This document shows positions 37,922-61,948 of a DNA stretch of 64,000 bases, one piece after another (the stretch's first letter is position 1; the number at the start of each line of letters is the position of its first letter). This DNA is from a virus. The notes below the pieces were generated by a model that was not told the origin of the DNA, ran no database searches, and was given only the letters and a program-made list of their open reading frames with translations. The DNA is taken from IMG/VR virus record IMGVR_UViG_3300011008_000009, positions 1 to 64,000 of that record. One strand, written 5' to 3'. A program made the position numbers and the translations under genes.

Positions 37922-38915
37922 CTTGGTACCTCACTGATAATGTGTAAGTTAATAACTGATAAAGCTCCGGGTCTTTAGCCTTTATTTTTACCATTAATTC
38001 ATATTTGTGTTTGTTATTAAAGTATGTATGAAATATGTCGGCATCTTCCTTTAGTGTATAATTGCTGCCGTACCACTTCTTACCACAATCAAAAAGAAAT
38101 TTATAAGTTACATTATTTATCGGAGCGACTTTTAAGTTAGGCTTCGGGTTCATAAATTTTCCCTTTTGCGCCATTCTCAAAAATTTCTTTAGCTCTAAAT
38201 TGTAGTTTTCTACCGAGCATTCTCCAAAAATAAAAGAAAATTTTTGTCTTTGTGCGGCAGGAAAATCCAATATTTTACTTATATCTTTTTCAATACAGTT
38301 TTTAACTATAAAGTTGATATTACCTATCGCACGACTATAAACCTTAGCATCAACCCAGCGTTTGGCTTGGGTGTAACTGTGAATAGTAACAGGATAATAA
38401 AAGGATATTTTTTTATTTAGCTTAATTATTTCTTCATAATCGCTATCTGTGATATCTGTATCGTAAAAAGTAATTTCTTGGTTAGCCGAGCTAATAAAGC
38501 GCTTGTTGCTGCTTTCGTGTAGGCGAATGAAATCAGACTTAATTAATTTATTTCTTAAGTAGCTATATCTACTGTCGGATAATAGTTTCCTTACTATCGG
38601 CGCATCATAGATAGTTGTATCAGGATAGATTGCTCGAATTTCTTTTGGAACGGCGCAATACTTATTATAAAAATAACTACCTATCAAAGTTACTTTTTCG
38701 CTCTTAATTAAGTGATCTATATAAATTTGCTTTTCGCCATTATAGATTACATATAGCATACTATACCATTCGATATCTTCTTTTTTCTCTGAGGGACAAA
38801 GTTTAACTTTATCCCCCATTTGTTTATGATATCCAGAGATTTGCATAACATCTAAATTAGCTTCGTAGCTTTGCGGTGTATATAACAAATCTAAGTCTAT
38901 AATTCCAACTACCAT
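37884..38915 (-). CDS. Hypothetical protein (343 aa)
   Basis: TAATG overlap with the polymerase stop. No motif recognised. Confidence 0.55.
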   Translation of the reverse strand: MVVGIIDLDLLYTPQSYEANLDVMQISGYHKQMGDKVKLCPSEKKEDIEWYSMLYVIYNGEKQIYIDHLIKSEKVTLIGSYFYNKYCAVPKEIRAIYPDTTIYDAPIVRKLLSDSRYSYLRNKLIKSDFIRLHESSNKRFISSANQEITFYDTDITDSDYEEIIKLNKKISFYYPVTIHSYTQAKRWVDAKVYSRAIGNINFIVKNCIEKDISKILDFPAAQRQKFSFIFGECSVENYNLELKKFLRMAQKGKFMNPKPNLKVAPINNVTYKFLFDCGKKWYGSNYTLKEDADIFHTYFNNKHKYELMVKIKAKDPELYQLLTYTLSVRYQDEQARKHYNRVD

Positions 38916-40428
38916 TAGGCTTCTGCACGCTCCGTTACTGTAGTTAATAAACCTTTATCATCTATATTTGTTATCAATTCAACTAGATGATAAGGAGTAC
39001 TTTTATATTTCTTAGGTATGAAGTTATTCTCTCTTCTAATACCCGTGAATATAATTTTATTTCCTCGACTAAACCAAGACTTTTCAATAACCTTTTTATG
39101 CCCGTCCGTACTCATAACGCTAATCTGCTTATCAAAGATACTAAACTGATTAGCATATATCTTAACATCTACAACTCCTGTAGTTGTTAAAATAGTGACT
39201 GTGTTCTTATTTTTATTCTTATCAATTACAGTTCCTGCTATTCTTGTAATTCGATAAATCGGAATATCTCTTCCCTTTATGGGTATGGTGTTTACTACTT
39301 CAGCGGTCTCCGGCATAGATTTGAAATCTTCCAGTTCATAAATTATCTTAGGTACTTTCTTAAGTTCGTGATCGTGGAAGTAGAAGTTTACACTATCCAT
39401 TTCCCATTTACTAATATTGCCCAAAGCATATTTGTTCCAGAAGTCGTCAAACAGCTCCTTATTGAGACCAATTAACAAATCATTCAAATGACTTTTAATA
39501 TAATCACTCAAAGGCTGCATTAACTTTTTATACATCTTATCCCACATAGCGCTAGGAATATATCCTATGGGTTCATCATTTTCATACTCTATGCTAACAT
39601 TTTCAGTATCAAAATTACTTTCGTAAAAACTAAAGCAATATAGGTCAAGATAATATTTATCTGTTAATCCCTTATCCTTGCTTATCTTTTTGATAAACTT
39701 GTTAAAGTTAAATACTTTTACATTAAAAGAAAGTTCTTCGGGGAACAATTTCTTTTCTATAAGTTTCTGCGCATTTCTCATATTGAGAGTAGTTTTCGCG
39801 CCACATATGGAAAGAATATAATCTTTCATTATTTCCGTTCTTTCGCCAAAGCTATCAAAAGCTCCACTTTTAATTAAGTTTACCATTTGCGGCTTATTGA
39901 CTTTTACCTTACACAAAAAGTCATTAATAGAGTTATAAGGTCTATTTCTTATGATATCTTTTGCAAGGTCTTTGCCTATCTTTAATATTCCTTTAATTCC
40001 ATAGTATATCTTATTTTCTGATTCTACTGGAGTAAAGGTAAAACTAGACTTATTAATATCTGGTAAAGCTATTGTTATTCCAGCGGACTGCATACTTCCG
40101 ATTGCTGTAGCAATCTTTCCGTAGTCAATTTTATTCGGTTTCTTTTTCTTGACCACGGTGCCATTCTCTTGTGGATTATCTTCTTCAGTATCCAGGAGTT
40201 CGTCCTCCTCTTCCTGTAGTTCTTCAGAGCAAAATACAGATTCAGTTGAACTCTCTGATTCGTTGTCTTGAGAATCATTTTCTTCATTTTCTTCTTCTCC
40301 GTCCGCAGCGCCACTATTAACTATTAAGTTTGCTGTGTTCCAATAAATTACTGGATACTTACAAGCAAGTTCCATTTCTTGAAGTCCGACAATTGAGTAG
40401 GCAAGGGTATGTGACTGATTGAAGCCAT
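38915..40428 (-). CDS. dnaE: DNA polymerase III alpha (DnaE-type), exon 3 of 3
   Basis: The frame is open upstream of the track ATG and reads (Y)GFNQSHTLAYSIVGLQEMELACKYP, equivalent to the YGFNKSH..AY motif. The C-terminal part looks OB-fold-like. Confidence 0.8.
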
Positions 40429-41652
40429 CAAGGTAGATGTTATTTTCATAACTGACTACTACCTTAGACTATATCTTCATCGTTTTTAGAGTCAAATAGC
40501 GGCTCTACCAACCGATATTTTCGACTAAGACAGATTTTACAATCTTTATACAAAATGTTAGCTAAACATTTTGCAGTTTTTTGTTTTGTAGTTTGACAAA
40601 CATATCCATTATTTTTCTTATCTTTTACATTTATTTTATTAGTAAACGAGGCTTCTATAGGAAGAAAAGAATTGCAAAAAGTTTTAAAATCCTCACAAGT
40701 GGATTGATAATTTGAAACAAAACCTATGTGATAATAATTATTTTTATCTATAGAAATCCAGCCGTCTCCATCTATCAAACCTCTTATAAAATGAGGTCGC
40801 ACAGCTAACGATAACTCTGGTAAATGTTTTGTTTTATGTGTTTTATCTGGCACTATACCATATTTAGCCAAACTATTACATAAATGTTCGCTTATCATTC
40901 GGATAGAACAAACTTCTGTATTACCTCTATTTCGATAAGAAATTTTACTATTAAGATTTAATTCCTTTTTAAATCTCTCTAATAATTCTCTGTCTTTAGC
41001 TTGTATTTCTATAGTTAATTGATGGTTATAAACGTTTCCATCTGCAAAAACAAATCCTAAAAAATAAGCCTTTTCTTCTGTATCAATATTATCAAAAAAT
41101 TCATCATTCTGTTCTTTATTGAGCTTAGGTTTATTAATTATTTTTATATTATTTTTAACTAAAACCTTATGGATTGTTTCGGTACAACAATTATATTTTC
41201 GAGCTATTTCGTTTTGAAACAAATCTGTAGTTGTATATAATTTAATTATTTCTTCTTCATCTTTTTTATTTAATATTCTAGGACTTTTTTTACTACGAAT
41301 TTCAATATTATTATCTTTTAATATTTTACTTATAGAATTTGCTCTGCAATGTAAAATTTGTGTAGCTATATATGAAATTGAAAATTCATCTTCGGTATAT
41401 AATTTTATGATATTTTTAATATCATTTTCTGTCCATTCTCTTCTTTTCGGCATTTTATCACCTCCTTTTAATTTAATGGTAGATAAACGATGCGTGGCAC
41501 TTGGGATTTCTCCTACTCTATACTAGATAGTCGTTGAACCTTCCGTTAGCTAAACGGCTTGGCTGCTGATAAGCATATCATATAGACTTAGCTTTCCAGC
41601 AATTCACCACGTTATTCAAATAATCTTACGATTATAGGGAGCAATTTTATTT
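40429..41652 (-). mobile_element. Intron (group I-like) carrying a LAGLIDADG endonuclease gene
   Basis: Interrupts the GYGFNxSH codons. The exon ends in U (GGGT|) and the intron ends in G (CCTTG|). Has the CGACTATC..AGTAGG core and a GTCAG+23 nt 3' tail like the other three introns. P1 pairing is weak, so the class and exact ends are less certain. Confidence 0.6.
40464..41453 (-). CDS. LAGLIDADG homing endonuclease
   Basis: Two motifs, YFLGFVFADGNV and FIRGLIDGDGWI. N-terminal HTH-like repeats. Strong SD (AAAGGAGGTG). Confidence 0.85.
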   Translation of the reverse strand: MPKRREWTENDIKNIIKLYTEDEFSISYIATQILHCRANSISKILKDNNIEIRSKKSPRILNKKDEEEIIKLYTTTDLFQNEIARKYNCCTETIHKVLVKNNIKIINKPKLNKEQNDEFFDNIDTEEKAYFLGFVFADGNVYNHQLTIEIQAKDRELLERFKKELNLNSKISYRNRGNTEVCSIRMISEHLCNSLAKYGIVPDKTHKTKHLPELSLAVRPHFIRGLIDGDGWISIDKNNYYHIGFVSNYQSTCEDFKTFCNSFLPIEASFTNKINVKDKKNNGYVCQTTKQKTAKCLANILYKDCKICLSRKYRLVEPLFDSKNDEDIV

Positions 41653-42319
41653 ACCCACGGCTCATAGCTATCAGCACGTTCCAAACGTACTTACACAATT
41701 TCTCATTACAATTCTTTTGCTTGGTTACTTCAAAAAATTCTTTAGTTAATGCATCATATTCTTTAGGATTTTTCTTGGCAATAGACTTTCTTAACTTATC
41801 TGCCCAGCTTAACGAAAAGCCGCCGAGTTCGGGTAACTGAACCAACTGCATAAATTGTTCCTGCGCAATACACAATCCATAAGATATTCCAACTATAGGT
41901 TTAAGGATTTCTTTCTCCTTCTCTCCTAAGCCGTATTGCTTCAATTCTTTATCCCATTCCATTTCATTAACTTTAAATCTCGCTAGCTTATTTAATGGCA
42001 TTTCCGCGCCCTTTTCGGGAGCCATAAGTCTTAATGCAGAGTTAAGAATTGCCAAGTCATCGACTGAGGTCGGCTTCATTAAGGCGATACCCTTAATTCC
42101 ACTATCTTTTTCCATTTGAAAGAAAGACCATATTTCGTGGTTCCAAAGTCTTTGCCAACTATTTATATTATCTCTTTCTATTTTATAAACGCCGACTATA
42201 CTTTCATATGTTTCTCTAAGAGAACCTTTATTTTCTACTCTGCCCGCTTCAAGAAGCAAATCAATACAAACTCTCATTTTATCAAGAGCTTCGATTGAGA
42301 GTAGATCCCACTTGATCAG
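41653..42319 (-). CDS. dnaE: DNA polymerase III alpha (DnaE-type), exon 2 of 3
   Basis: The open frame upstream of the track ATG reads LIKWDLLSIEALDK, equivalent to GLLKxDxLGL..L. It ends ...LIAMSRG plus the T of a split Tyr codon. Confidence 0.75.
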
Positions 42320-43547
42320 CGGTTTGTCATATATTTCTATATGTCCTGACTATCTTTTACCTTATAGGAACTCCGTTTCGAACTACGTATCAATAGTAGC
42401 CCTACTCCCAGTCTCACCCGGGATAGTCGATACACACATATTTTAGAGTAAATTTTTCCAAGTTGTGCCATTTATGACAGCCCTTATAGAAGTGGGTGTC
42501 ACTTGAGGGTAGGCTTTATAAATTTCAGAATTAGAAATGCCTTCTTTGTGCATTTCTCTTATTTTTAATACATCTTGAGTAGTTAATTTCGCTCGACCGT
42601 TATATTGTCCAGCTCTACGAAGACTAGAATGAATTTTTCTGTTTTCTTCTGTAAAAACTTCTGGCATTACTAGTTTATATCTATTACCATAATAAACATT
42701 CCAAAATGTCATTTCGTCTTTGTATGCCCATTTATAATCTTCGTAAACATCCTTCCAATACTCACCTTTTGCATATCTTTCTCTTAATTTTACCACGTCA
42801 TCATATTCGAGAGGACCGTTAGTGAATTGACCAGCAAACTCTCTATTAAAAGGATATTCTTCAGTGGTAGTTGTGAGATTTTTGTAAGTTATATGATGAT
42901 ATATTTTTCTAAAAGTTTCATATTTAATTTTTTCAGAAAATTGTTCATATAACAAGCAAATAGGAATATTTCGATGGTCTAAGATGTATTGTGCTTCTTC
43001 TTCTGTTAGATTAGCATTATTATTATCAGCTCCAGCTTTACCTTTATAAGTAGGAAAATATTTTCCACCAGGGTCAACATTATATCCATTAGGGACTAAG
43101 CTGTTAAACTCTTTAATATATTGTTCTTCTAGCACAATTGCTTCTTCAATTGAAAGGTTTCTATGTAGCACCTTAAATTCAAAGTTATCCTTTCCATATT
43201 TATGGATAGCTTCTTGAATTACTTGTCGATGTTTAAGGTCTTTAGGATAACTTTTTTCGTTTCCCCATTTTTTTTCTACATTGTTAGTAATACCAATGTA
43301 TATTTTTTGATTAATTAAATTTGTTATTTTATATACATACATATTAACACCTCGCACTTTATTACCCTCATAATAAAGTGGGATTTATGTAACGTCTACT
43401 CTAAAATTTTGGCGCGGGATTACCATATCACTGGGATTATGACTTAGGCTTCCCCGCCGCTATATAGGTACTGTTTACTTACGCTTTCGCTGCCTATATA
43501 ACGCTGCCGATAAGCAGTTAGAAGTTTACGAGCCTAACATTTCGTCA
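42320..43547 (-). mobile_element. Group I intron carrying a GIY-YIG endonuclease gene
   Basis: Exon ends AGT|. Guide-like GCTCGT can pair with GTGAGT. P2-like CTGCTTATCGGCAG. 3' core TATCGACTATCCCGGG...ATTGATACG..GAAACGG is homologous to the two topoisomerase introns. The intron ends in G. Confidence 0.75.
42443..43342 (-). CDS. GIY-YIG homing endonuclease
   Basis: MYVYKITNLINQKIYIGITNN...E..YI..F....PNGYN. C-terminal repeated (T/S)xE(D/E)(V/A)..IR helices. Start moved to ATG 43342 behind GAGGTG. Confidence 0.85.
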   Translation of the reverse strand: MYVYKITNLINQKIYIGITNNVEKKWGNEKSYPKDLKHRQVIQEAIHKYGKDNFEFKVLHRNLSIEEAIVLEEQYIKEFNSLVPNGYNVDPGGKYFPTYKGKAGADNNNANLTEEEAQYILDHRNIPICLLYEQFSEKIKYETFRKIYHHITYKNLTTTTEEYPFNREFAGQFTNGPLEYDDVVKLRERYAKGEYWKDVYEDYKWAYKDEMTFWNVYYGNRYKLVMPEVFTEENRKIHSSLRRAGQYNGRAKLTTQDVLKIREMHKEGISNSEIYKAYPQVTPTSIRAVINGTTWKNLL

Positions 43548-45482
43548 ACTCACATCTTCGCACTGGTGTAGATCGAACTGAGTAATAATATCTCCACTTC
43601 TTGTTCTCATAAGTGCAGAATACTCACTAAACGGCTCTTCTACCAATATTACTCCACCTGCATGAGAGCCTACTCCATTAACTAATCCTTCAATTCGCTG
43701 AGCAACTTCCCATACTTTAGGATAATCTTCTGTCATAAGTTTAACAAAAGTTCTGTCGGGTTCTATACCATTTTCTTCATCACCATAAAAGGTCTGACTA
43801 AGAGTTCTGGCAATACCACGTTCAGCTTTTATAAAAGAAGCCAAGTAACTAGCTTCATCTATATCAATTCCTAATCCTCTGCAAGCTGTAAGTATTGCAC
43901 TCTTACTAGCCTCGGTTTTAAGAGTTTGAACTTTACTAATACGGATATCGTTCCAATCCTCTGTATCGTCAGAACTTTTGCGAGAAGCATTATACTTTTC
44001 GCCTAATGCCTTCAACACCGACTGGCGCTTATTTCCTTGAATATCTATATCAATATCCAATACAGATGCACGCTCAGGGTTCAAAAATCTCCAGGGGAAT
44101 GTTGATGTTCTTTCTCTTAACGGGTTAATCTGCGTGATGTCAAGCAAGTAAAGAAGAACAAAACCTACACCAGAACCTCTTCCCGCGCCAACCAGTGTGT
44201 CACCCTCATTCCAAGCTATTTTTACTAATTCACTCGTCTGAAGAAGATAACCTGACCACCGAGTGTTCATCTTTTCCGAAGATACCCACAACGAATTAAG
44301 ACATACATCAATTGCTTTATACATCTCTTCGTTCGCGCGCTCAATCGGGTCTTTCTCAATTGCTTCAACTATTCTACGAGCAAGGTGTCTATCACTATCG
44401 TACTGCGATGTGGCAAACTGCTTTAATAGCTTTATATCGCTGTACTTATCTATAAGTTCCATATCAGGCTCTCTCGTGTCTGACGGAACATAAGGTATGT
44501 GCAAAGGCTTTGTTAAATCATAGTTTTCACACATATCATATATAATTTTTGTGTTTGCAAGTCCACGACTTACCGCTTCGGCGCCGATATTGCTATCCAT
44601 ATATTCGTGAATTTCTTCTGTACTCATAAGATAAGTACTCGCGTAGAAATCCATTACTTCTCTTTCGCCGTCTTGCGATTTGAGAAATGCTTCGTGTATG
44701 GGGCGCTCTTCCTTTTTAAGATAATGTGAGTCGGTAGTTATTATATAAGGTATATACATCTTAAATGTACCTAAGTGTACTAACACCTTATTAACAAACT
44801 GCTGTTCTTCACTTGTCTTTGACGGTTGAAGCTCTAAAAAGAAATTTTCCTTTCCGAATATGGACTGAATATTTTCTATCCAAGAATACAATTCATTCCA
44901 AAATTCACCGCTCCACTCTGGGTCATTTGTTATTTCTGCTCTATGTTTTAATATCCAGCCGTCTATCCACGAGCCAAGACAAGCACTCGAAGCGATTACG
45001 TGACCAGGGTTCGCACCGATTATTTCTTTTAAGTCACTATAATAAGTTGGAACTCTTGTCATTCGTGCCGTTTCAAAACTATTGTTCCAAGCACGAGTTG
45101 ATAACTGACGCAACTGCTTATTTCCTATTTCATCTTTAGCTAATAGAATAAAGTGATAATACTTATCTTCGCCCTTGATGAAGTTCTCTTTACATAGTCC
45201 GTTACGACATAAATAAATTTCGTTTCCAAGTATCAGCTTAAAATTCTTAATACGTTCTTTTTCTTCACCTGTCGCGGCGTTCTTTAGTCTTTTCTGATAA
45301 TGTTTCTGCGCCATTAGGAAACCGCCAATAGTCTCGTGGTCTGTAATGGCTACTCCGTTATGTCCAAGTTCAATTGCATAATCTATAAGATTATCAACCT
45401 TATTAATACAATCCCTTAGACGATAATTACTGTGCTCGGTATGATTATGACAATCTACGAAAAATTCGGGTGTCAATATCAT
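43548..45482 (-). CDS. dnaE: DNA polymerase III alpha (DnaE-type), exon 1 of 3 (PHP and palm)
   Basis: PHP motif DCHNHTEHSNYRLRDC, ITDHETIGG, and DIDIDI in the palm. Ends ...ITQFDLHQCEDVS immediately before an in-frame TGA. Confidence 0.85.
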
Positions 45483-57301: not shown

Positions 57302-57330
57302 ATTATATCATAATTTTAGGTAAAAGTCAA
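57302..57330 (-). promoter_or_regulatory. sigmaA-type promoter of the topoisomerase A gene
   Basis: TTGACT 57330-57325, 17 nt, TGaTATAAT (57307-57302). Confidence 0.8.
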
Positions 57331-57629
57331 TCATTTACGGGTTCAAAATATTTTTCTATTTCATTTCTATAAAATGGTACAAAAGCACCGCCTACTAATA
57401 GATACCAGCTATGTCGAGAAGGAATATCATAATTTATTTTTGTGATAGTACCAGCTGGAATATAGTTATTAGCCCAGGTTCCACCTACTTTGGCTCTTAC
57501 TAGTCGAACATTAAGAGACTTGGGCGGACTAGCAACGCCACCTATGCAGCGTGCTATCACTTCTCCCTCGGCATCGAAAAGAACTCCGCTTTCAATGCGA
57601 TATTGTCCATTTTCTTCAAATGCATTCAT
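57327..57629 (-). CDS. Hypothetical protein (100 aa)
   Basis: ORF with SD (TAGGAG). Confidence 0.5.
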   Translation of the reverse strand: MNAFEENGQYRIESGVLFDAEGEVIARCIGGVASPPKSLNVRLVRAKVGGTWANNYIPAGTITKINYDIPSRHSWYLLVGGAFVPFYRNEIEKYFEPVND

Positions 57630-57639
57630 TATATTACTC

Positions 57640-57870
57640 CTAATCTAGAGGTGTTTCGTCTTTAGGCTCAATTTGTTCAAAAATTATATAACTTGAATAT
57701 GGATATTTTGAAACCATTCCATTAATTCTCGTAATAATTATTTCATAATTCTCTACATTGTTCCTAGGACTAGCAAAAGGTAAAGATACTTCTTTTACCT
57801 CATATTTCAGAGCGTGGTTTATAATCTCATAGCTGTGACTATGAACATTCATTACTAAATAGGTTTTCAT
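57640..57870 (-). CDS. Hypothetical protein (76 aa)
   Basis: ORF with SD (GAGG). Confidence 0.45.
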   Translation of the reverse strand: MKTYLVMNVHSHSYEIINHALKYEVKEVSLPFASPRNNVENYEIIITRINGMVSKYPYSSYIIFEQIEPKDETPLD

Positions 57871-57877
57871 AATTACC

Positions 57878-58069
57878 TCATAAGGTTTTTAATACTACTA
57901 CTTGATGTTTACAAATCGGACATTTAATATAATATAAAGTACTCGGAAAAGAGGACATTGAACTTTCAGTGTCTCTCTTCTTTACATCTTCTTTCCAATT
58001 ATAAGAAAGTAAACTTTTACAAATTTTACATTCAACAAACCTGTCAGGTTCTTTAGTTACTATAATCAT
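57878..58069 (-). CDS. Small zinc-ribbon protein (63 aa)
   Basis: CKICKS ... CPICKH. The start lies 2 nt after the topoisomerase exon 3 stop. Confidence 0.45.
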   Translation of the reverse strand: MIIVTKEPDRFVECKICKSLLSYNWKEDVKKRDTESSMSSFPSTLYYIKCPICKHQVVVLKTL

Positions 58070-58071
58070 AA

Positions 58072-58253
58072 TTATTCCTTTATTTCTGAAAAGTCAATAT
58101 TATTAAACACGTATTCAGTTCTCGGTTCTACTCTACTGCCCATTAGCTGTTCAAGCATTTCAATACCTTCTTCCGAATACTCAATACGTTCAAGACGCTG
58201 ATATTCAGGACTAAACATTGATTTTCGCGCCGTTGCGGCAGGCAATTCACCTA
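58072..58253 (-). CDS. Type IIA topoisomerase subunit B (GyrB/ParE-like), exon 3 of 3
   Basis: Not in the ORF track because it has no ATG. Reads (L)GELPAATARKSMFSPEYQRLERIEYSEEGIEMLEQLMGSRVEPRTEYVFNNIDFSEIKE*, equivalent to the KGLGEM ... LMG..V..R motif. Confidence 0.8.
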
Positions 58254-59212
58254 CGTATTACTCAATTATTACTAATTGTACTGACCATTTCTTCACATAT
58301 AGTGCATACCGTTTCCAATTGCGTATCAATAGCAATCGTACTCTCCAACAACGGAGATGGTCGATACAGGTTAATTATTCTTTTCTAAGTTCTTAATCCT
58401 TTTAAGATTAGTAGCTTTAAAGCTGTCGTAACTGGAATATATATTTTTAAAGTCTTCGTAAATGGTTCTTAAACTTTCACCATTTGCATATCTTAATCTA
58501 ATGCTTTCAAACTGTTGGTCACTAATTTTTGCTTTTGGGTTCTTTTCTCCTGGGTTGCTATAACTTTTAGAATTATTTCTATGCCACTCTCTATTTTCTT
58601 GTGTATTTAATTCGGGTAAAATATTTTTCCAAGTTTGCCAAGTATATACTTTTTTAAAACCGGTTTTTTCTATTTTATCCTGATATTCATAATACATTTC
58701 TCTTGTAGAGATAGTCTTGGATGCCCACAATAATCTTATTTCTATAACATCTTTTTCTGTTAATTTGTGCTTAGGATGTTTTTCGCCGTGAGTATCAACT
58801 AAATCTCCACCCGGAGTAGCATTATATCCTTTTTTAAAAGTATTGTAATAATTTATCCAATAAATTTCTTTTTCTTTTAGCTCTTCTGGTTTACATTCTT
58901 CTAAAACTTCCCATTTGAAATTTTCTAAACCATATTTTCTGAACGCTTGATACAATACTTTATCATACTCTTTATTATCACTATCAAAAGCTCTTTCTCT
59001 ATGAGATTTCCAGCGATTTTCAATATTTATAGATAACCCAATATAAGCATTATTATTAATTAAATTTGTAATTTTGTATATACCAGTCATACATTTCCTC
59101 CAAGAATAATTCTTCCCACGAGATTATCCAACTTGGGACTACCCTCGTTAGCAGTCAATGAAGACTACCCCGCCGATAAGCGGAAAAGTATGTAAGGACC
59201 AGACTACCTCTT
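58254..59212 (-). mobile_element. Group I intron carrying a GIY-YIG endonuclease gene
   Basis: Exon ends GGAT|. Guide GTCCTT pairs with AAGGAT, with a G-U pair at the splice site. P2-like CCGCTTATCGGCGG. Conserved 3' core TATCGACCATCTCC...ATTGATACG..GGAAACGG. The intron ends ...AATACG|. Confidence 0.8.
58371..59090 (-). CDS. GIY-YIG homing endonuclease
   Basis: MTGIYKITNLINNNAYIGLSINIENRWKSH...KEIYWINYY..GYNATPGG. Repeated T/S.xD/Q....IR helices. Confidence 0.85.
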   Translation of the reverse strand: MTGIYKITNLINNNAYIGLSINIENRWKSHRERAFDSDNKEYDKVLYQAFRKYGLENFKWEVLEECKPEELKEKEIYWINYYNTFKKGYNATPGGDLVDTHGEKHPKHKLTEKDVIEIRLLWASKTISTREMYYEYQDKIEKTGFKKVYTWQTWKNILPELNTQENREWHRNNSKSYSNPGEKNPKAKISDQQFESIRLRYANGESLRTIYEDFKNIYSSYDSFKATNLKRIKNLEKNN

Positions 59213-59411
59213 ATCCTTTTGCTCTCGTTACCTCTCCCTTTACTGTTGAACGAACCTTATTAAACTCCTCATCAGTAAAGTAGTAACTTTCTACTCCTTT
59301 ATTTTCTACTATATAAAGAGGAGATTTAAGCCAATACAGTCTACCTTCTTTTATAAAGTCTGGCGCAAGATACCATAAGTTTGCCATAATTAACAATCCT
59401 ATGTGACTTCC
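59213..59411 (-). CDS. Type IIA topoisomerase subunit B, exon 2 of 3
   Basis: Reads GSHIGLLIMANLWYLAPDFIKEGRLYWLKSPLYIV...TRAKG plus the T of a split Leu codon. Equivalent to the DG-SHI..LLL.FF......G.VY...PPLY motif. Confidence 0.8.
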
Positions 59412-60446
59412 CACGTTACCCATTATTTCTAATGGCGCTGACTATCTGTTACTCGTTAAAATGAGAATACTCTTTCCAATCACGTACCAATAGTGACTGT
59501 ACTTCCCTTCCGGGGAATAGTCGATACAGGCTTCATTTATTAACCCAAACCTTTTGTTTTTTCTTGTATATTGGCAGGTCTTTATAGGTGCGACCCCACA
59601 ATATTTGTTGTAATGTATTGTAACTGCATCTATCTTTAAAATCATTATAGATACTTCTTGCATCTTCATTAACGTACCGTTCTCGCATTTTTAAGACTTC
59701 TTCACTTGTAAATTTTGCGCTATCTGAATTAGAGCCATCTGTTGCGTGATATTTATAGAAATTTTTATTTTCCTCGGTATAAACTTCCATTTTAATATCT
59801 TTCCAAGTGGTTCCGTCCCAAATGGATGCGAAGCTGCTAAAACTTATTCTGTCTTGAAATTGTTTATATACTTCACGGCGTCGCATATGGTTGCCATAAC
59901 ACTCTCTAATATAAGCCACATCTTCATTAGTGAGTTTCGTTCTTCCATTATTTTCACCACGACTATTTCCGCCGCCTTCATTGCAATTATAACCAAATCC
60001 TTTATAAGTATTATAATATGCAATCCAGTATTTTTCTCGTTCATCTAATTGTTCTAATGAACATTCTTCTATAATTTCAAAATCAAAAGCATCAACGCCA
60101 TATTTCTTAATGGCTATTTCAATCGGTATATCAATTTTGTTTTTATGTTCGGAAAATCTTCTCTCTATATCATTACTTTGACCAATATATGATTTTCCAT
60201 TTTCTTTCTTAGTTATTTTGTATATGCCTATCATTGCGGCACCTCCACAATTATTAGGCTTGGGTCAATTCTGATTCCCACGGGATCTGCATGCCCACGA
60301 GGGGTTTAGCTTCTCTTATCACCATAACCTTTCGGTTTAGTTGCCCGTTAGCCTTCTATAATAATGTAGGGAATATGTAAACCCTCTCTACATTTTTCAG
60401 AAGACCCCGCTGGTTAGCGGTAAAGTATTTACGGACAGAGTTACTT
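59412..60446 (-). mobile_element. Group I intron carrying a GIY-YIG endonuclease gene
   Basis: Exon ends TCGGAT|. Guide GTCCG pairs with CGGAT, with a G-U pair at the splice site. P2-like CCGCTAACCAGCGG. Conserved 3' core TGTATCGACTATTCCCCGG...ATTGGTACG..GGAAAG. The intron ends ...AACGTG|. Confidence 0.8.
59533..60234 (-). CDS. GIY-YIG homing endonuclease
   Basis: MIGIYKITKKENGKSYIGQSNDIERRFSEH...REKYWIAYY..GFGYNCNEGG. Confidence 0.85.
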   Translation of the reverse strand: MIGIYKITKKENGKSYIGQSNDIERRFSEHKNKIDIPIEIAIKKYGVDAFDFEIIEECSLEQLDEREKYWIAYYNTYKGFGYNCNEGGGNSRGENNGRTKLTNEDVAYIRECYGNHMRRREVYKQFQDRISFSSFASIWDGTTWKDIKMEVYTEENKNFYKYHATDGSNSDSAKFTSEEVLKMRERYVNEDARSIYNDFKDRCSYNTLQQILWGRTYKDLPIYKKKQKVWVNK

Positions 60447-61925
60447 ATCCGAATCTGCGTCAGTTGCTATGGCAATTTTACCATAATGAAGTTTTTTGCT
60501 ATCATACTTTCCAGGCAGTATGTTCATGGCGCTTAACAGTAACTTTATCTCTTCGTTCTTAAATATTTTTTCTTCATCATTGGACAACGAATTAATCATC
60601 TTACCACGAATTGCCATAAGACCATACTTAGTTATATCTCTTGCCCGCGACAGTCCGCCTAACGCCGAGTCTCCCTCACAGATAAGTAAGGTACTGTCCT
60701 GTCCAAGAAACTCTGCGTCTTTCAGCTTATCGCTAGCAAACACTTTTTTCTTCTGATTTTTCTCGATATCCTTTGTAGCATCAAGCACAGCCTGTCTTGC
60801 CTTTTCAGCCGCCTTTTCAGCTTTCTGAATCTTATTCATCATTTCGATGATACTATTAAATTCACCACTATGTTTAAGCGCAAATTCATCAAGTCCAGAC
60901 TTAAAAGCCGTACTAGCTAAAGTTCTAAGATTAGGATTATTTATTTTAGACTTGGTCTGATTAGCAAAAGAGGGGTTAACTACTTTGCAGTTTATCGCAT
61001 AAACCAGACCCTTACGAATGATTTCGGGATCGAACTCCTTCTTGGACAAACGCTTCATAGAGGTTGTAAAAGTAGTTTTCGCGCCTGTAATGGGAGAGCC
61101 ACCCTCGCTGCAAAAAAGTCCGTTGACAAATACATAGCTGGCACCCGGACCATCTGTCCACATAAAAGCTACTTCTACTTCATCAGTATCATCTTTTGCT
61201 GTTGTAATGATTGGCGCAGACATCAATGGTTTTTTGACATTGTCCTTAATAAAATCGCCTATACCATTTTCGGAATAAAACTCTACTGTTTTTCCAGTAT
61301 TAACCAAACCAACTTTAAAATGTACACCTTTATTAAGATAAGAAATATTTCTTATTTCATTACATATTCTATCATAAGAAAAGCCGTCAGTCATTAATTT
61401 AAATACTTCGGGGTCTGGAATAAACTCTACCTTTGTGCCAGTATGGGCGCTTGTATTGGGTATTTCTTCATAATTTACGAGTATTCCTTTTTCAAAGGTA
61501 GCAGTAGCCTGCTTCTTTTCTCGATAGGAAGTAACGACAAAATTTTTAGAAGACATACATACCGCGGTTCCGCCTATACCATTCAATCCAGAAGAATTTT
61601 TGTATGCATTTTTGTCAAATTTTCCTCCAGTATGACTTTCGGTATAAATAGACACCAGAATATTTCTTCCGTCTTTAATACCAAAAGGTACTCCTCGTCC
61701 GTCGTCTATAATTGTAATTTTATTGTTTTGTTCATCAACAGCTATGGTTATTAAATTACCATATCCTGCCAATGCTTCATCTGTAGAATTGTTGACTATT
61801 TCTTTAAATGCTTGATAAATACCATCGGTATCATCAGAACCGAGATACATCTGTATCCTTGAACGCATAGCTTCACGCGTTTCTAAGTGTCTTATGCTAT
61901 CTATACCATAATTATCCATTCGCAT
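60447..61925 (-). CDS. Type IIA topoisomerase subunit B, exon 1 of 3 (GHKL ATPase, transducer, start of Toprim)
   Basis: EIVNNSTDEA, DDGRGVP and GLNGIGGTAV (ATPase). LLICEGDSALGG (Toprim Glu). Ends ...IATDADSD before AAGTAA. Start moved to ATG 61925 behind AAAGGAG. Confidence 0.85.
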
Positions 61926-61948
61926 TCTCCTTTTCACTTTATAATAAT

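Follow-up and report, generated by a model that had tools for sequence, protein, structure and literature searches.

The 64,000-nucleotide stretch analysed here, hereafter the window, comprises positions 1 to 64,000 of IMG/VR virus record IMGVR_UViG_3300011008_000009, an uncultured virus of 138,578 bp with direct terminal repeats that is rated 100% complete. On its minus strand, between positions 45482 and 38915, the window carries a gene for a DnaE-type DNA polymerase (dnaE) that very probably yields one precursor RNA, from which two group I introns, each bearing a homing-endonuclease gene (HEG), would be spliced to leave the messenger RNA of a single 1371-residue YorL/DnaE-type polymerase. 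Three minus-strand frames (45482-43545, 42277-41651 and 40375-38915) contain the domains of DNA polymerase III (Pol III) alpha in order; Pfam assigned PHP and DNA_pol3_alpha to the first exon, DNA_pol3_finger to the second and HHH_6 to the third, and the DnaE/Pol III alpha order of PHP, palm, fingers and HhH is preserved across all three. When segments 45482-43548, 42319-41653 and 40428-38915, the exons proposed in an earlier note on this DNA, were joined in a script, the resulting 4116 nt formed an open coding sequence of 1371 codons whose sole stop is the terminal one, and the proposed coordinates held throughout.

The closest cultured relative of the polymerase is YorL, the DnaE-like protein of Bacillus phage SPbeta, which aligned with the spliced protein in a single collinear BLASTP alignment (residues 8-1370 of the spliced product against 1-1304 of YorL, 38.4% identity). 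A tblastn search with YorL recovered the same relationship as three collinear segments of 36-39% identity, YorL residues 1-620, 625-836 and 846-1304, leaving 4 residues unaligned at junction 1 and 9 at junction 2. Exon 1 (43548-45482, 645 codons) corresponds to YorL 1-620 with 39% identity and encodes PHP and the palm with the DIDID aspartates and the QFD motif; exon 2 (41653-42319, 222 codons plus 1 nt) corresponds to YorL 625-836 and encodes the LIKWD aspartate and the fingers; exon 3 (38915-40428, 2 nt plus 503 codons and the stop) corresponds to YorL 846-1304 and encodes (Y)GFNQSH, HhH and the C-terminal domains. In an alignment with Taq Pol III alpha (3E0D), the DIDID aspartates matched Taq D463 and D465 and QFD matched Taq 603-605; by extension of that alignment, the LIKWD Asp, residue 5 of exon 2, falls on Taq 618, which we take to be the third catalytic Asp of Pol III alpha. 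Domain content and alignments thus support the prediction that the gene product is a YorL/DnaE-type Pol III alpha. The earlier note had called a phage-encoded DnaE uncommon; it is indeed a minority type but not a rare one, since 1,330 of 50,697 phage records have a DnaE homologue.

Both splice junctions could be placed to the nucleotide. Exon 1 ends in ITQFDLHQCEDVS, with GAU GUG AGU followed immediately by UGA, and exon 2 starts at 42319 with LIKWDLLSIEALDK (CUG AUC AAG UGG GAU). Exon 2 in turn ends in AMSRG plus a T (CGU GGG U) followed by AAAUAA, and exon 3 starts at 40428 with AT-GGC-TTC-AAT-CAG-TCA-CAT, the Tyr codon at junction 2 being split T/AT (a slash marks a junction throughout). 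The joined protein reads CEDVS/LIKWD at the first junction and SRG-Y-GFNQSH at the second. Consistent with the group I rule invoked in the earlier note, U stands at the exon end and G at the intron end in both insertions. We compared these junctions with the 80 closest viral-contig relatives of exon 2 (59-73% identity): in 79/80, exon 2 follows exon 1 without a single intervening nucleotide (gap 0 nt), and in 72 of the 74 relatives that could be scored, exactly 3 nt, the Tyr codon split by intron 2, stand between exons 2 and 3. Gaps this exact are far beyond chance, and because the relatives are contiguous with gaps of exactly 0 and 3 nt, the junctions are right to the nucleotide. Relatives without intron 1 read CEDVS/LIKID, for example ITQFDLHDCEDVS/LIKIDML, and relatives without intron 2 read AMSKGYGFNQSH or VLIAMSKGYGFNQSHTLAYS. 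The comparison with intron-less homologues thereby confirmed exactly the two junctions of the earlier note, 43548/42319 restoring QFD through LIKWDLL and 41653/40428 restoring GYGFNQSH. The insertions are sporadic among the relatives, a pattern expected for mobile introns. In the Taq alignment, QFD stands before junction 1 and the LIKWD aspartate after it, and because this Asp aligns with Taq 618, intron 1 would sit four codons before what is presumably the third catalytic Asp.

The insertion at junction 2 (intron 2; 40429-41652, minus strand, 1224 nt) is a classical group I intron with P7.1 and P7.2 and a LAGLIDADG gene in the P8 loop. No group I match was obtained when the whole window was scanned with Rfam at the gathering threshold, or when 40200-43700 was scanned at E values up to 10; intron 2 was missed because an open reading frame (ORF) of 1 kb occupies L8. 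The ORF-free 5' part (41662-41440), scanned with RF00028, scored 57.1 bits (E 2.7e-14; the gathering score is 50), and the match spans positions 1-210 of the 253 in the model. In the Rfam alignment the P1 guide is GCUCC (41642-41638), and when it is paired with exon GGGU, the U.G wobble falls exactly on T41653; the weak P1 with GUCUAU described in the earlier note had been drawn from the wrong guide. The 5' part contains P, Q and R elements, R being GUUCAACGACUAU (41539-41527), and P7.1 and P7.2 come after P7. At the 3' end, the S element AAGAUAUAGUC (40477-40467), which contains P7', is followed by the P9 hairpin, and the intron closes with the terminal G at 40429. P8 is formed by CAUCGUU (41492-41486) with AACGAUG (40484-40478) and encloses the LAGLIDADG ORF. 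The strand order is the canonical P1-P2-P3-J3/4-P4, and a fold computed with the ORF deleted recovered P2, P3, P4-P6 and P8. The same intron occupies the same G/Y position in three other contigs (L104, L202 and L203), and in comparison with L104 and L203, compensatory changes were found in 10 of 52 pairs, including pairs of P3, P8 and P9. In addition, nt 40-127 of intron 2 share 75-84% identity with stretches within the DNA polymerase genes of Felix O1-like phages, and they also match Staphylococcus phages at the recombinase gene.

The insertion at junction 1 (intron 1; 42320-43547, minus strand, 1228 nt) has the anatomy of a group I intron whose P6a loop holds a GIY-YIG gene. Contigs L033, L090, L105 and L116 carry orthologous copies at this position of dnaE. 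The guide of intron 1, UUAG-GCUCGU (43528-43537), was read from the sequence and pairs with GUGAGU as P1 and with CUGA as P10, giving a continuous 10-bp guide on GUGAGU/CUGA with the U.G wobble at T43548. P1 covaries among the orthologues, exon GAGU occurring with guide GCUC and exon UAGU with guide GCUA. Directly after P1 comes the P3 5' strand AACUUC (43521-43526), which pairs with GGAGUU (42374-42369) and has two compensatory pairs among the orthologues. Two hairpins, H1 (43517-43504) and H2 (43502-43459), occupy an unusual position between this strand and J3/4-P4 (43459-43517 together), and both show compensatory changes. They are followed by P4-P5-P4' (GCGGG...CCCGC, 43414-43457), in which P4 changes from G:C to U:A among orthologues and from G:C to A:U in the wider family described below. 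P6a is a 9-bp stem (43407-43399 with 42448-42440) with four compensatory pairs, and because it closes the loop around the gene, the GIY-YIG ORF is placed in P6a. The 3' core (42320-42433) comprises J6/7, P7 (GACUAUC/GAUAGUC), P7.1, P7.2, P3', P8, P9 and the terminal G at 42320, in the order GUAUC, GACUAUC (P7), P7.1, P7.2, GAAAC, GGAGUU (P3'), the P8 hairpin and GAUAGUC (P7'), after which come P9, a hairpin capped by a GAAA loop, and AAACCG, which ends with the terminal G. We take this 3' core to be very like those of T4 td and Twort, that is, IA2-like. Across the five orthologues, the window copy included, 96.9% of the cells of 77 pairs are paired and 20 pairs show compensatory changes, among them pairs of P1, P3, P4, P6a, P7.1, P7.2, P8 and P9. 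Two other assignments were discarded: an alternative P3 between the H2 3' strand and the P8 region is not conserved in paralogues or in the family, and the first hairpin was not taken as P4-P5, given that GCGGG...CCCGC matches a td-type P4 and coincides with a weak local Rfam match. Covariation in both insertions, together with the Rfam match of intron 2, bears out the earlier assignment of both to group I.

A pattern search of viral contigs with the 3' core returned at least 114 stretches. In this family, of which intron 1 is a member (family loci L008-L121), the order is P1, the P3 5' strand, two hairpins and J3/4-P4, with no P2. RNAalifold applied to ten ORF-less members recovered P4, P5, P7, P7.1, P7.2 and P9, and 22 of the 38 pairs in that fold show compensatory changes; the MAFFT alignment A1 mis-registers the P3 columns, and P3 was left out of the column counts there. 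P3 was instead evaluated by a window-anchored search with a non-self control, in which the anchors are imperfect; an unconstrained partner search was noisy. By this measure the family has 33 distinct complementary P3 helices, and a stretch of at least 6 pairs was found in 67% of self combinations vs 16% of non-self combinations. Two further members lie in the window itself, where a gyrB/parE-like topoisomerase gene (57327-61937) is also interrupted twice (58257-60446, minus strand), at DADSD/GSHI and RAKG/LGEL; both of its introns belong to the intron 1 family and carry GIY-YIG genes (60234-59533 and 59090-58371). About 40 of the loci fetched by the intron 1 pattern encode a YorL-like dnaE, with insertions at several positions. 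About 80% identity to the 3' core of intron 1 was also found in the cultured Enterococcus phages VRE9_3, EF1 and EF5, in noncoding DNA directly behind a GIY-YIG gene. We suggest, as a tentative and rather doubtful proposition when taken as a whole, that these elements constitute a large, apparently undescribed family with what we take to be a td/Twort-like core, a rearranged layout and no visibility to RF00028, which may have spread to numerous positions in YorL-type dnaE, to the gyrB-like gene of this phage and to further genes of viral contigs of gut and rumen type. In the Enterococcus phages (L003:3001-3107 in EF1; also EF5 and VRE9_3), the core lies between two unannotated ORFs, next to a RecJ-like gene.

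Each intron carries a HEG, as the earlier note had proposed. The GIY-YIG gene (42443-43342, minus strand; ORF 43357/43342-42443) encodes 299 residues from the ATG at 43342, which is preceded by a Shine-Dalgarno sequence, GAGGUG, at 43353-43348. Pfam GIY-YIG matched this ORF with 38.7 bits vs 22.6, and the I-TevI catalytic domain (PDB 1MK0) matched its product with E 5e-7. The LAGLIDADG gene (40464-41453, minus strand) is preceded by the Shine-Dalgarno sequence AAGGAGGUG (41467-41459) and encodes 329 residues with an N-terminal helix-turn-helix region and two motifs with acidic residues, FVFADGNV and LIDGDGWI, the arrangement of a two-motif single-chain enzyme. Pfam LAGLIDADG_3 matched this ORF in two stretches (38.6 bits vs 22.5) and Hom_end matched with 31.4 bits; PDB 2DCH matched the protein with E 5.6e-6. 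Both endonuclease ORFs start about 200 nt inside their insertions, each with its own Shine-Dalgarno sequence and ATG, and the LAGLIDADG ORF is in a frame different from those of exons 2 and 3. Its last codons double as P8' and the S/P7' element.

Starting from the observed junctions, the covarying RNA folds, the protein domains and the patchy distribution, we infer the following course of splicing, endonuclease activity and homing. The dnaE gene would be transcribed as a single precursor with both group I introns, each of which would fold as a ribozyme and bind free guanosine. Cleavage would follow the U of the P1 U.G wobble, after T43548 and T41653, and the exons would be joined after the terminal G of each intron, 42320 and 40429. 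The ligated RNA would read GUGAGU/CUGAUC and GUGGGU/AUGGCU, the expected ligated exons being GAUGUGAGU/CUGAUCAAG and AGCCGUGGGU/AUGGCUUCA, and the messenger RNA would restore QFDLHQCEDVS-LIKWDLL and SRG-Y-GFNQSH as continuous sequences in a protein of about 160 kDa, as estimated from its length. When related phages without the intron infect the same cell, the endonucleases would cut their dnaE at the conserved motif, and the intron would be copied into the cut allele during repair. The complete 138,578-bp genome gave one PF07733 match and none to a polymerase of family A or B; because no second polymerase was found, splicing is probably essential for the phage.

Several observations weigh against two active introns in dnaE, and most of them concern intron 1. 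The best RF00028 score on intron 1 was 10.6 bits (E 2.3), restricted to the P4-P6 region, and its 3' part scanned separately gave nothing; the covariance-model scan suggested in the earlier note thus succeeded for intron 2 but fell below threshold for intron 1. Because there is no significant Rfam match, the case for intron 1 is built on anatomy and comparison. Its strand order departs from the canonical IA2 order P1-P2-P3-J3/4-P4, which is also the consensus order of RF00028; because of this layout, we infer the catalytic competence of intron 1 from conservation, not from a model match. Similarly, when eight loci with ORF-less family members were scanned with RF00028, only other, classical introns in L075 were matched, and an ORF-less member such as L075:55-309 was passed over; the non-canonical layout may be the reason why Rfam misses the family even where no ORF is present. 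In intron 2, P10 is weak. Finally, of the Tyr, Tyr, Arg, Glu and Asn residues conserved in the GIY-YIG domain, the Arg that corresponds to I-TevI Arg27 is replaced by Lys in the protein of intron 1 (codons EKK of NNVEKKWGNE, 43264-43272), where four orthologues and two paralogues have Arg (EKRW or NRW, vs EKKW). On account of this substitution, the enzyme may be weakened and intron 1 may no longer be mobile.

These observations could be taken to mean that the introns have decayed, that the polymerase is dead or only partly spliced and that the phage uses the host polymerase, and both the failure of Rfam to recognise intron 1 and the Arg-to-Lys change at a conserved catalytic position of the GIY-YIG gene fit such a history. 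We nevertheless consider it very unlikely, as the exons are open and conserved throughout, the full-length protein being 38% identical to YorL, the window copy keeps the helices of both introns intact, and the complete genome with its terminal repeats has no other detected polymerase. The same locus could have been produced by free-standing HEGs that split dnaE into three genes whose chains assemble separately, as in Aeh1 nrdA/mobE. That both endonuclease genes have their own Shine-Dalgarno sequence and ATG agrees with this arrangement, but such starts are found only on those two genes and on exon 1, whose ATG is preceded by AAAGGAGG. No Shine-Dalgarno sequence precedes the first in-frame ATG of exon 2 (42277) or of exon 3 (40375), and separate translation from these ATGs would omit the conserved first 14 codons of exon 2 and 18 of exon 3. 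Moreover, both insertions have complete group I cores with covariation, the Tyr codon is split T/AT, and exons 1 and 2 run directly into stops; three separately made chains are therefore highly improbable.

If the insertions were inteins, they would be removed from the protein and not from the RNA. LAGLIDADG_3 and Hom_end, the families matched by the 41453-40464 ORF, also occur in intein endonucleases, and the 1224-nt length of intron 2 is divisible by three. Against this, in-frame stops directly follow the ends of both exon 1 and exon 2, the endonuclease ORFs have their own Shine-Dalgarno sequences and ATGs about 200 nt inside, the LAGLIDADG ORF is in another frame, and Pfam found no Hint/intein splicing domain. 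The in-frame stops, together with the missing Hint domain, refute this origin, which we regard as exceedingly unlikely. Two HEG-bearing group I introns in one dnaE precursor are thus the explanation that we favour.

The T4 td intron is a group IA2 intron with the I-TevI GIY-YIG gene in its P6 loop, and the Twort orf142 introns offer a further comparison. Intron 1 resembles these in that its P6a loop holds an I-TevI-like GIY-YIG gene, and like td it interrupts a conserved motif of an essential DNA-metabolism gene. Its J3/4-P4 (of the UAACGGGG type in the family), P7 GACUAU, P7.1 and P7.2 are, we assume, closely td/Twort-like, and presumably the same is true of the GAAA-P3' segment, P8, AUAGUC and the P9 GAAA hairpin. 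Unlike td and Twort, intron 1 lacks P2, its P3 5' strand adjoins P1 and two hairpins precede J3/4-P4; it also differs from td in that its host gene is dnaE and in that RF00028 does not detect it.

The endonucleases of introns in family A phage polymerase genes are mostly HNH or GIY-YIG enzymes, whereas that of intron 2 is a LAGLIDADG enzyme. Such introns are described for SPO1/SP82, Bastille (I-BasI), Twort-like phage K, Felix O1-like phages and cyanophage Pf-WMP3 (PMC3428280, PMC11878797; references in PMC2504315). They resemble the present case in that a self-splicing intron with a HEG lies in a conserved polymerase motif, but the host gene here is of the C family (DnaE/Pol III alpha, YorL type). 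A review (PMC7824862) mentions that the polymerase gene of Bacillus phage G has self-splicing introns. In the literature, no account of phage dnaE, yorL or Pol III alpha carrying a group I intron was found.

Phages of the SPbeta type are known to harbour group I introns as refuges. PMC2504315 cites Lazarevic et al. for the introns in SPbeta bnrdE and bnrdF. In SPbeta, yorL itself is uninterrupted, unlike the dnaE of the window, but the spliced protein is collinear with YorL and a RecJ-like gene lies directly upstream of dnaE, as yorK lies before yorL. A cultured phage with an interrupted gene is the SPbeta-like Staphylococcus phage NC_029119, whose YorL-type dnaE is broken by about 460 nt (L002:6426-6887), in which R- and S-like elements (CAACGACUAUCCC ... 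GGAGAUAUAGUC) and the decayed start of a GIY-YIG ORF can be recognised. In contrast to the window, the site is inside the DIDID catalytic motif, there is a single insertion with no intact endonuclease gene, and the locus is annotated as two genes, dnaE_2 and dnaE_1, not as an intron. Rfam gave no match on the NC_029119 insertion; judged from its elements, the dnaE_2/dnaE_1 insertion is probably an unannotated intron. Compared with SPbeta YorL, exon 3 of the window also contains an acidic, low-complexity stretch of about 40-45 residues (40166-40303) that has no counterpart and appears as a gap in the tblastn alignment.

If both introns splice as proposed, the locus would be annotated as one 1371-residue polymerase and not as three fragments with two stray nucleases, and because dnaE is the only detectable polymerase gene, two ribozymes would gate the replication of the phage. 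The range of group I introns in catalytic motifs of phage replication genes would be extended to C-family (DnaE) polymerases. Because RF00028 misses intron 2 in whole-window scans and the intron 1 family wholly, such split genes are likely to be mis-annotated, an example being dnaE_1/dnaE_2 of the SPbeta-like Staphylococcus phage. Should the unusual order of helices in the intron 1 family prove correct, it would provide a natural test of the tolerance of the group I scaffold to rearrangement.

In the viral contig data, YorL-type dnaE is heavily colonised at several sites, and its GYGFNxSH motif is a hot spot, in which three different introns were found at three positions among the relatives. 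Position G/Y carries the intron 2 type, as in the window. Position F/N, after GYGF, carries a different, ORF-less classical intron (L158:6667-7009, with the same sequence in L160). A position a few codons beyond, near N(K)/(A/S)H, carries, in many contigs (L012, L018, L022, L036, L067, L083, L088 and others), an intron 1-type element without P9. In two contigs, L109 and L094, the YorL-type dnaE apparently has at least 4 insertions, located around exon 1 residues 456, 599 and 644 and at the exon 2/exon 3 junction.

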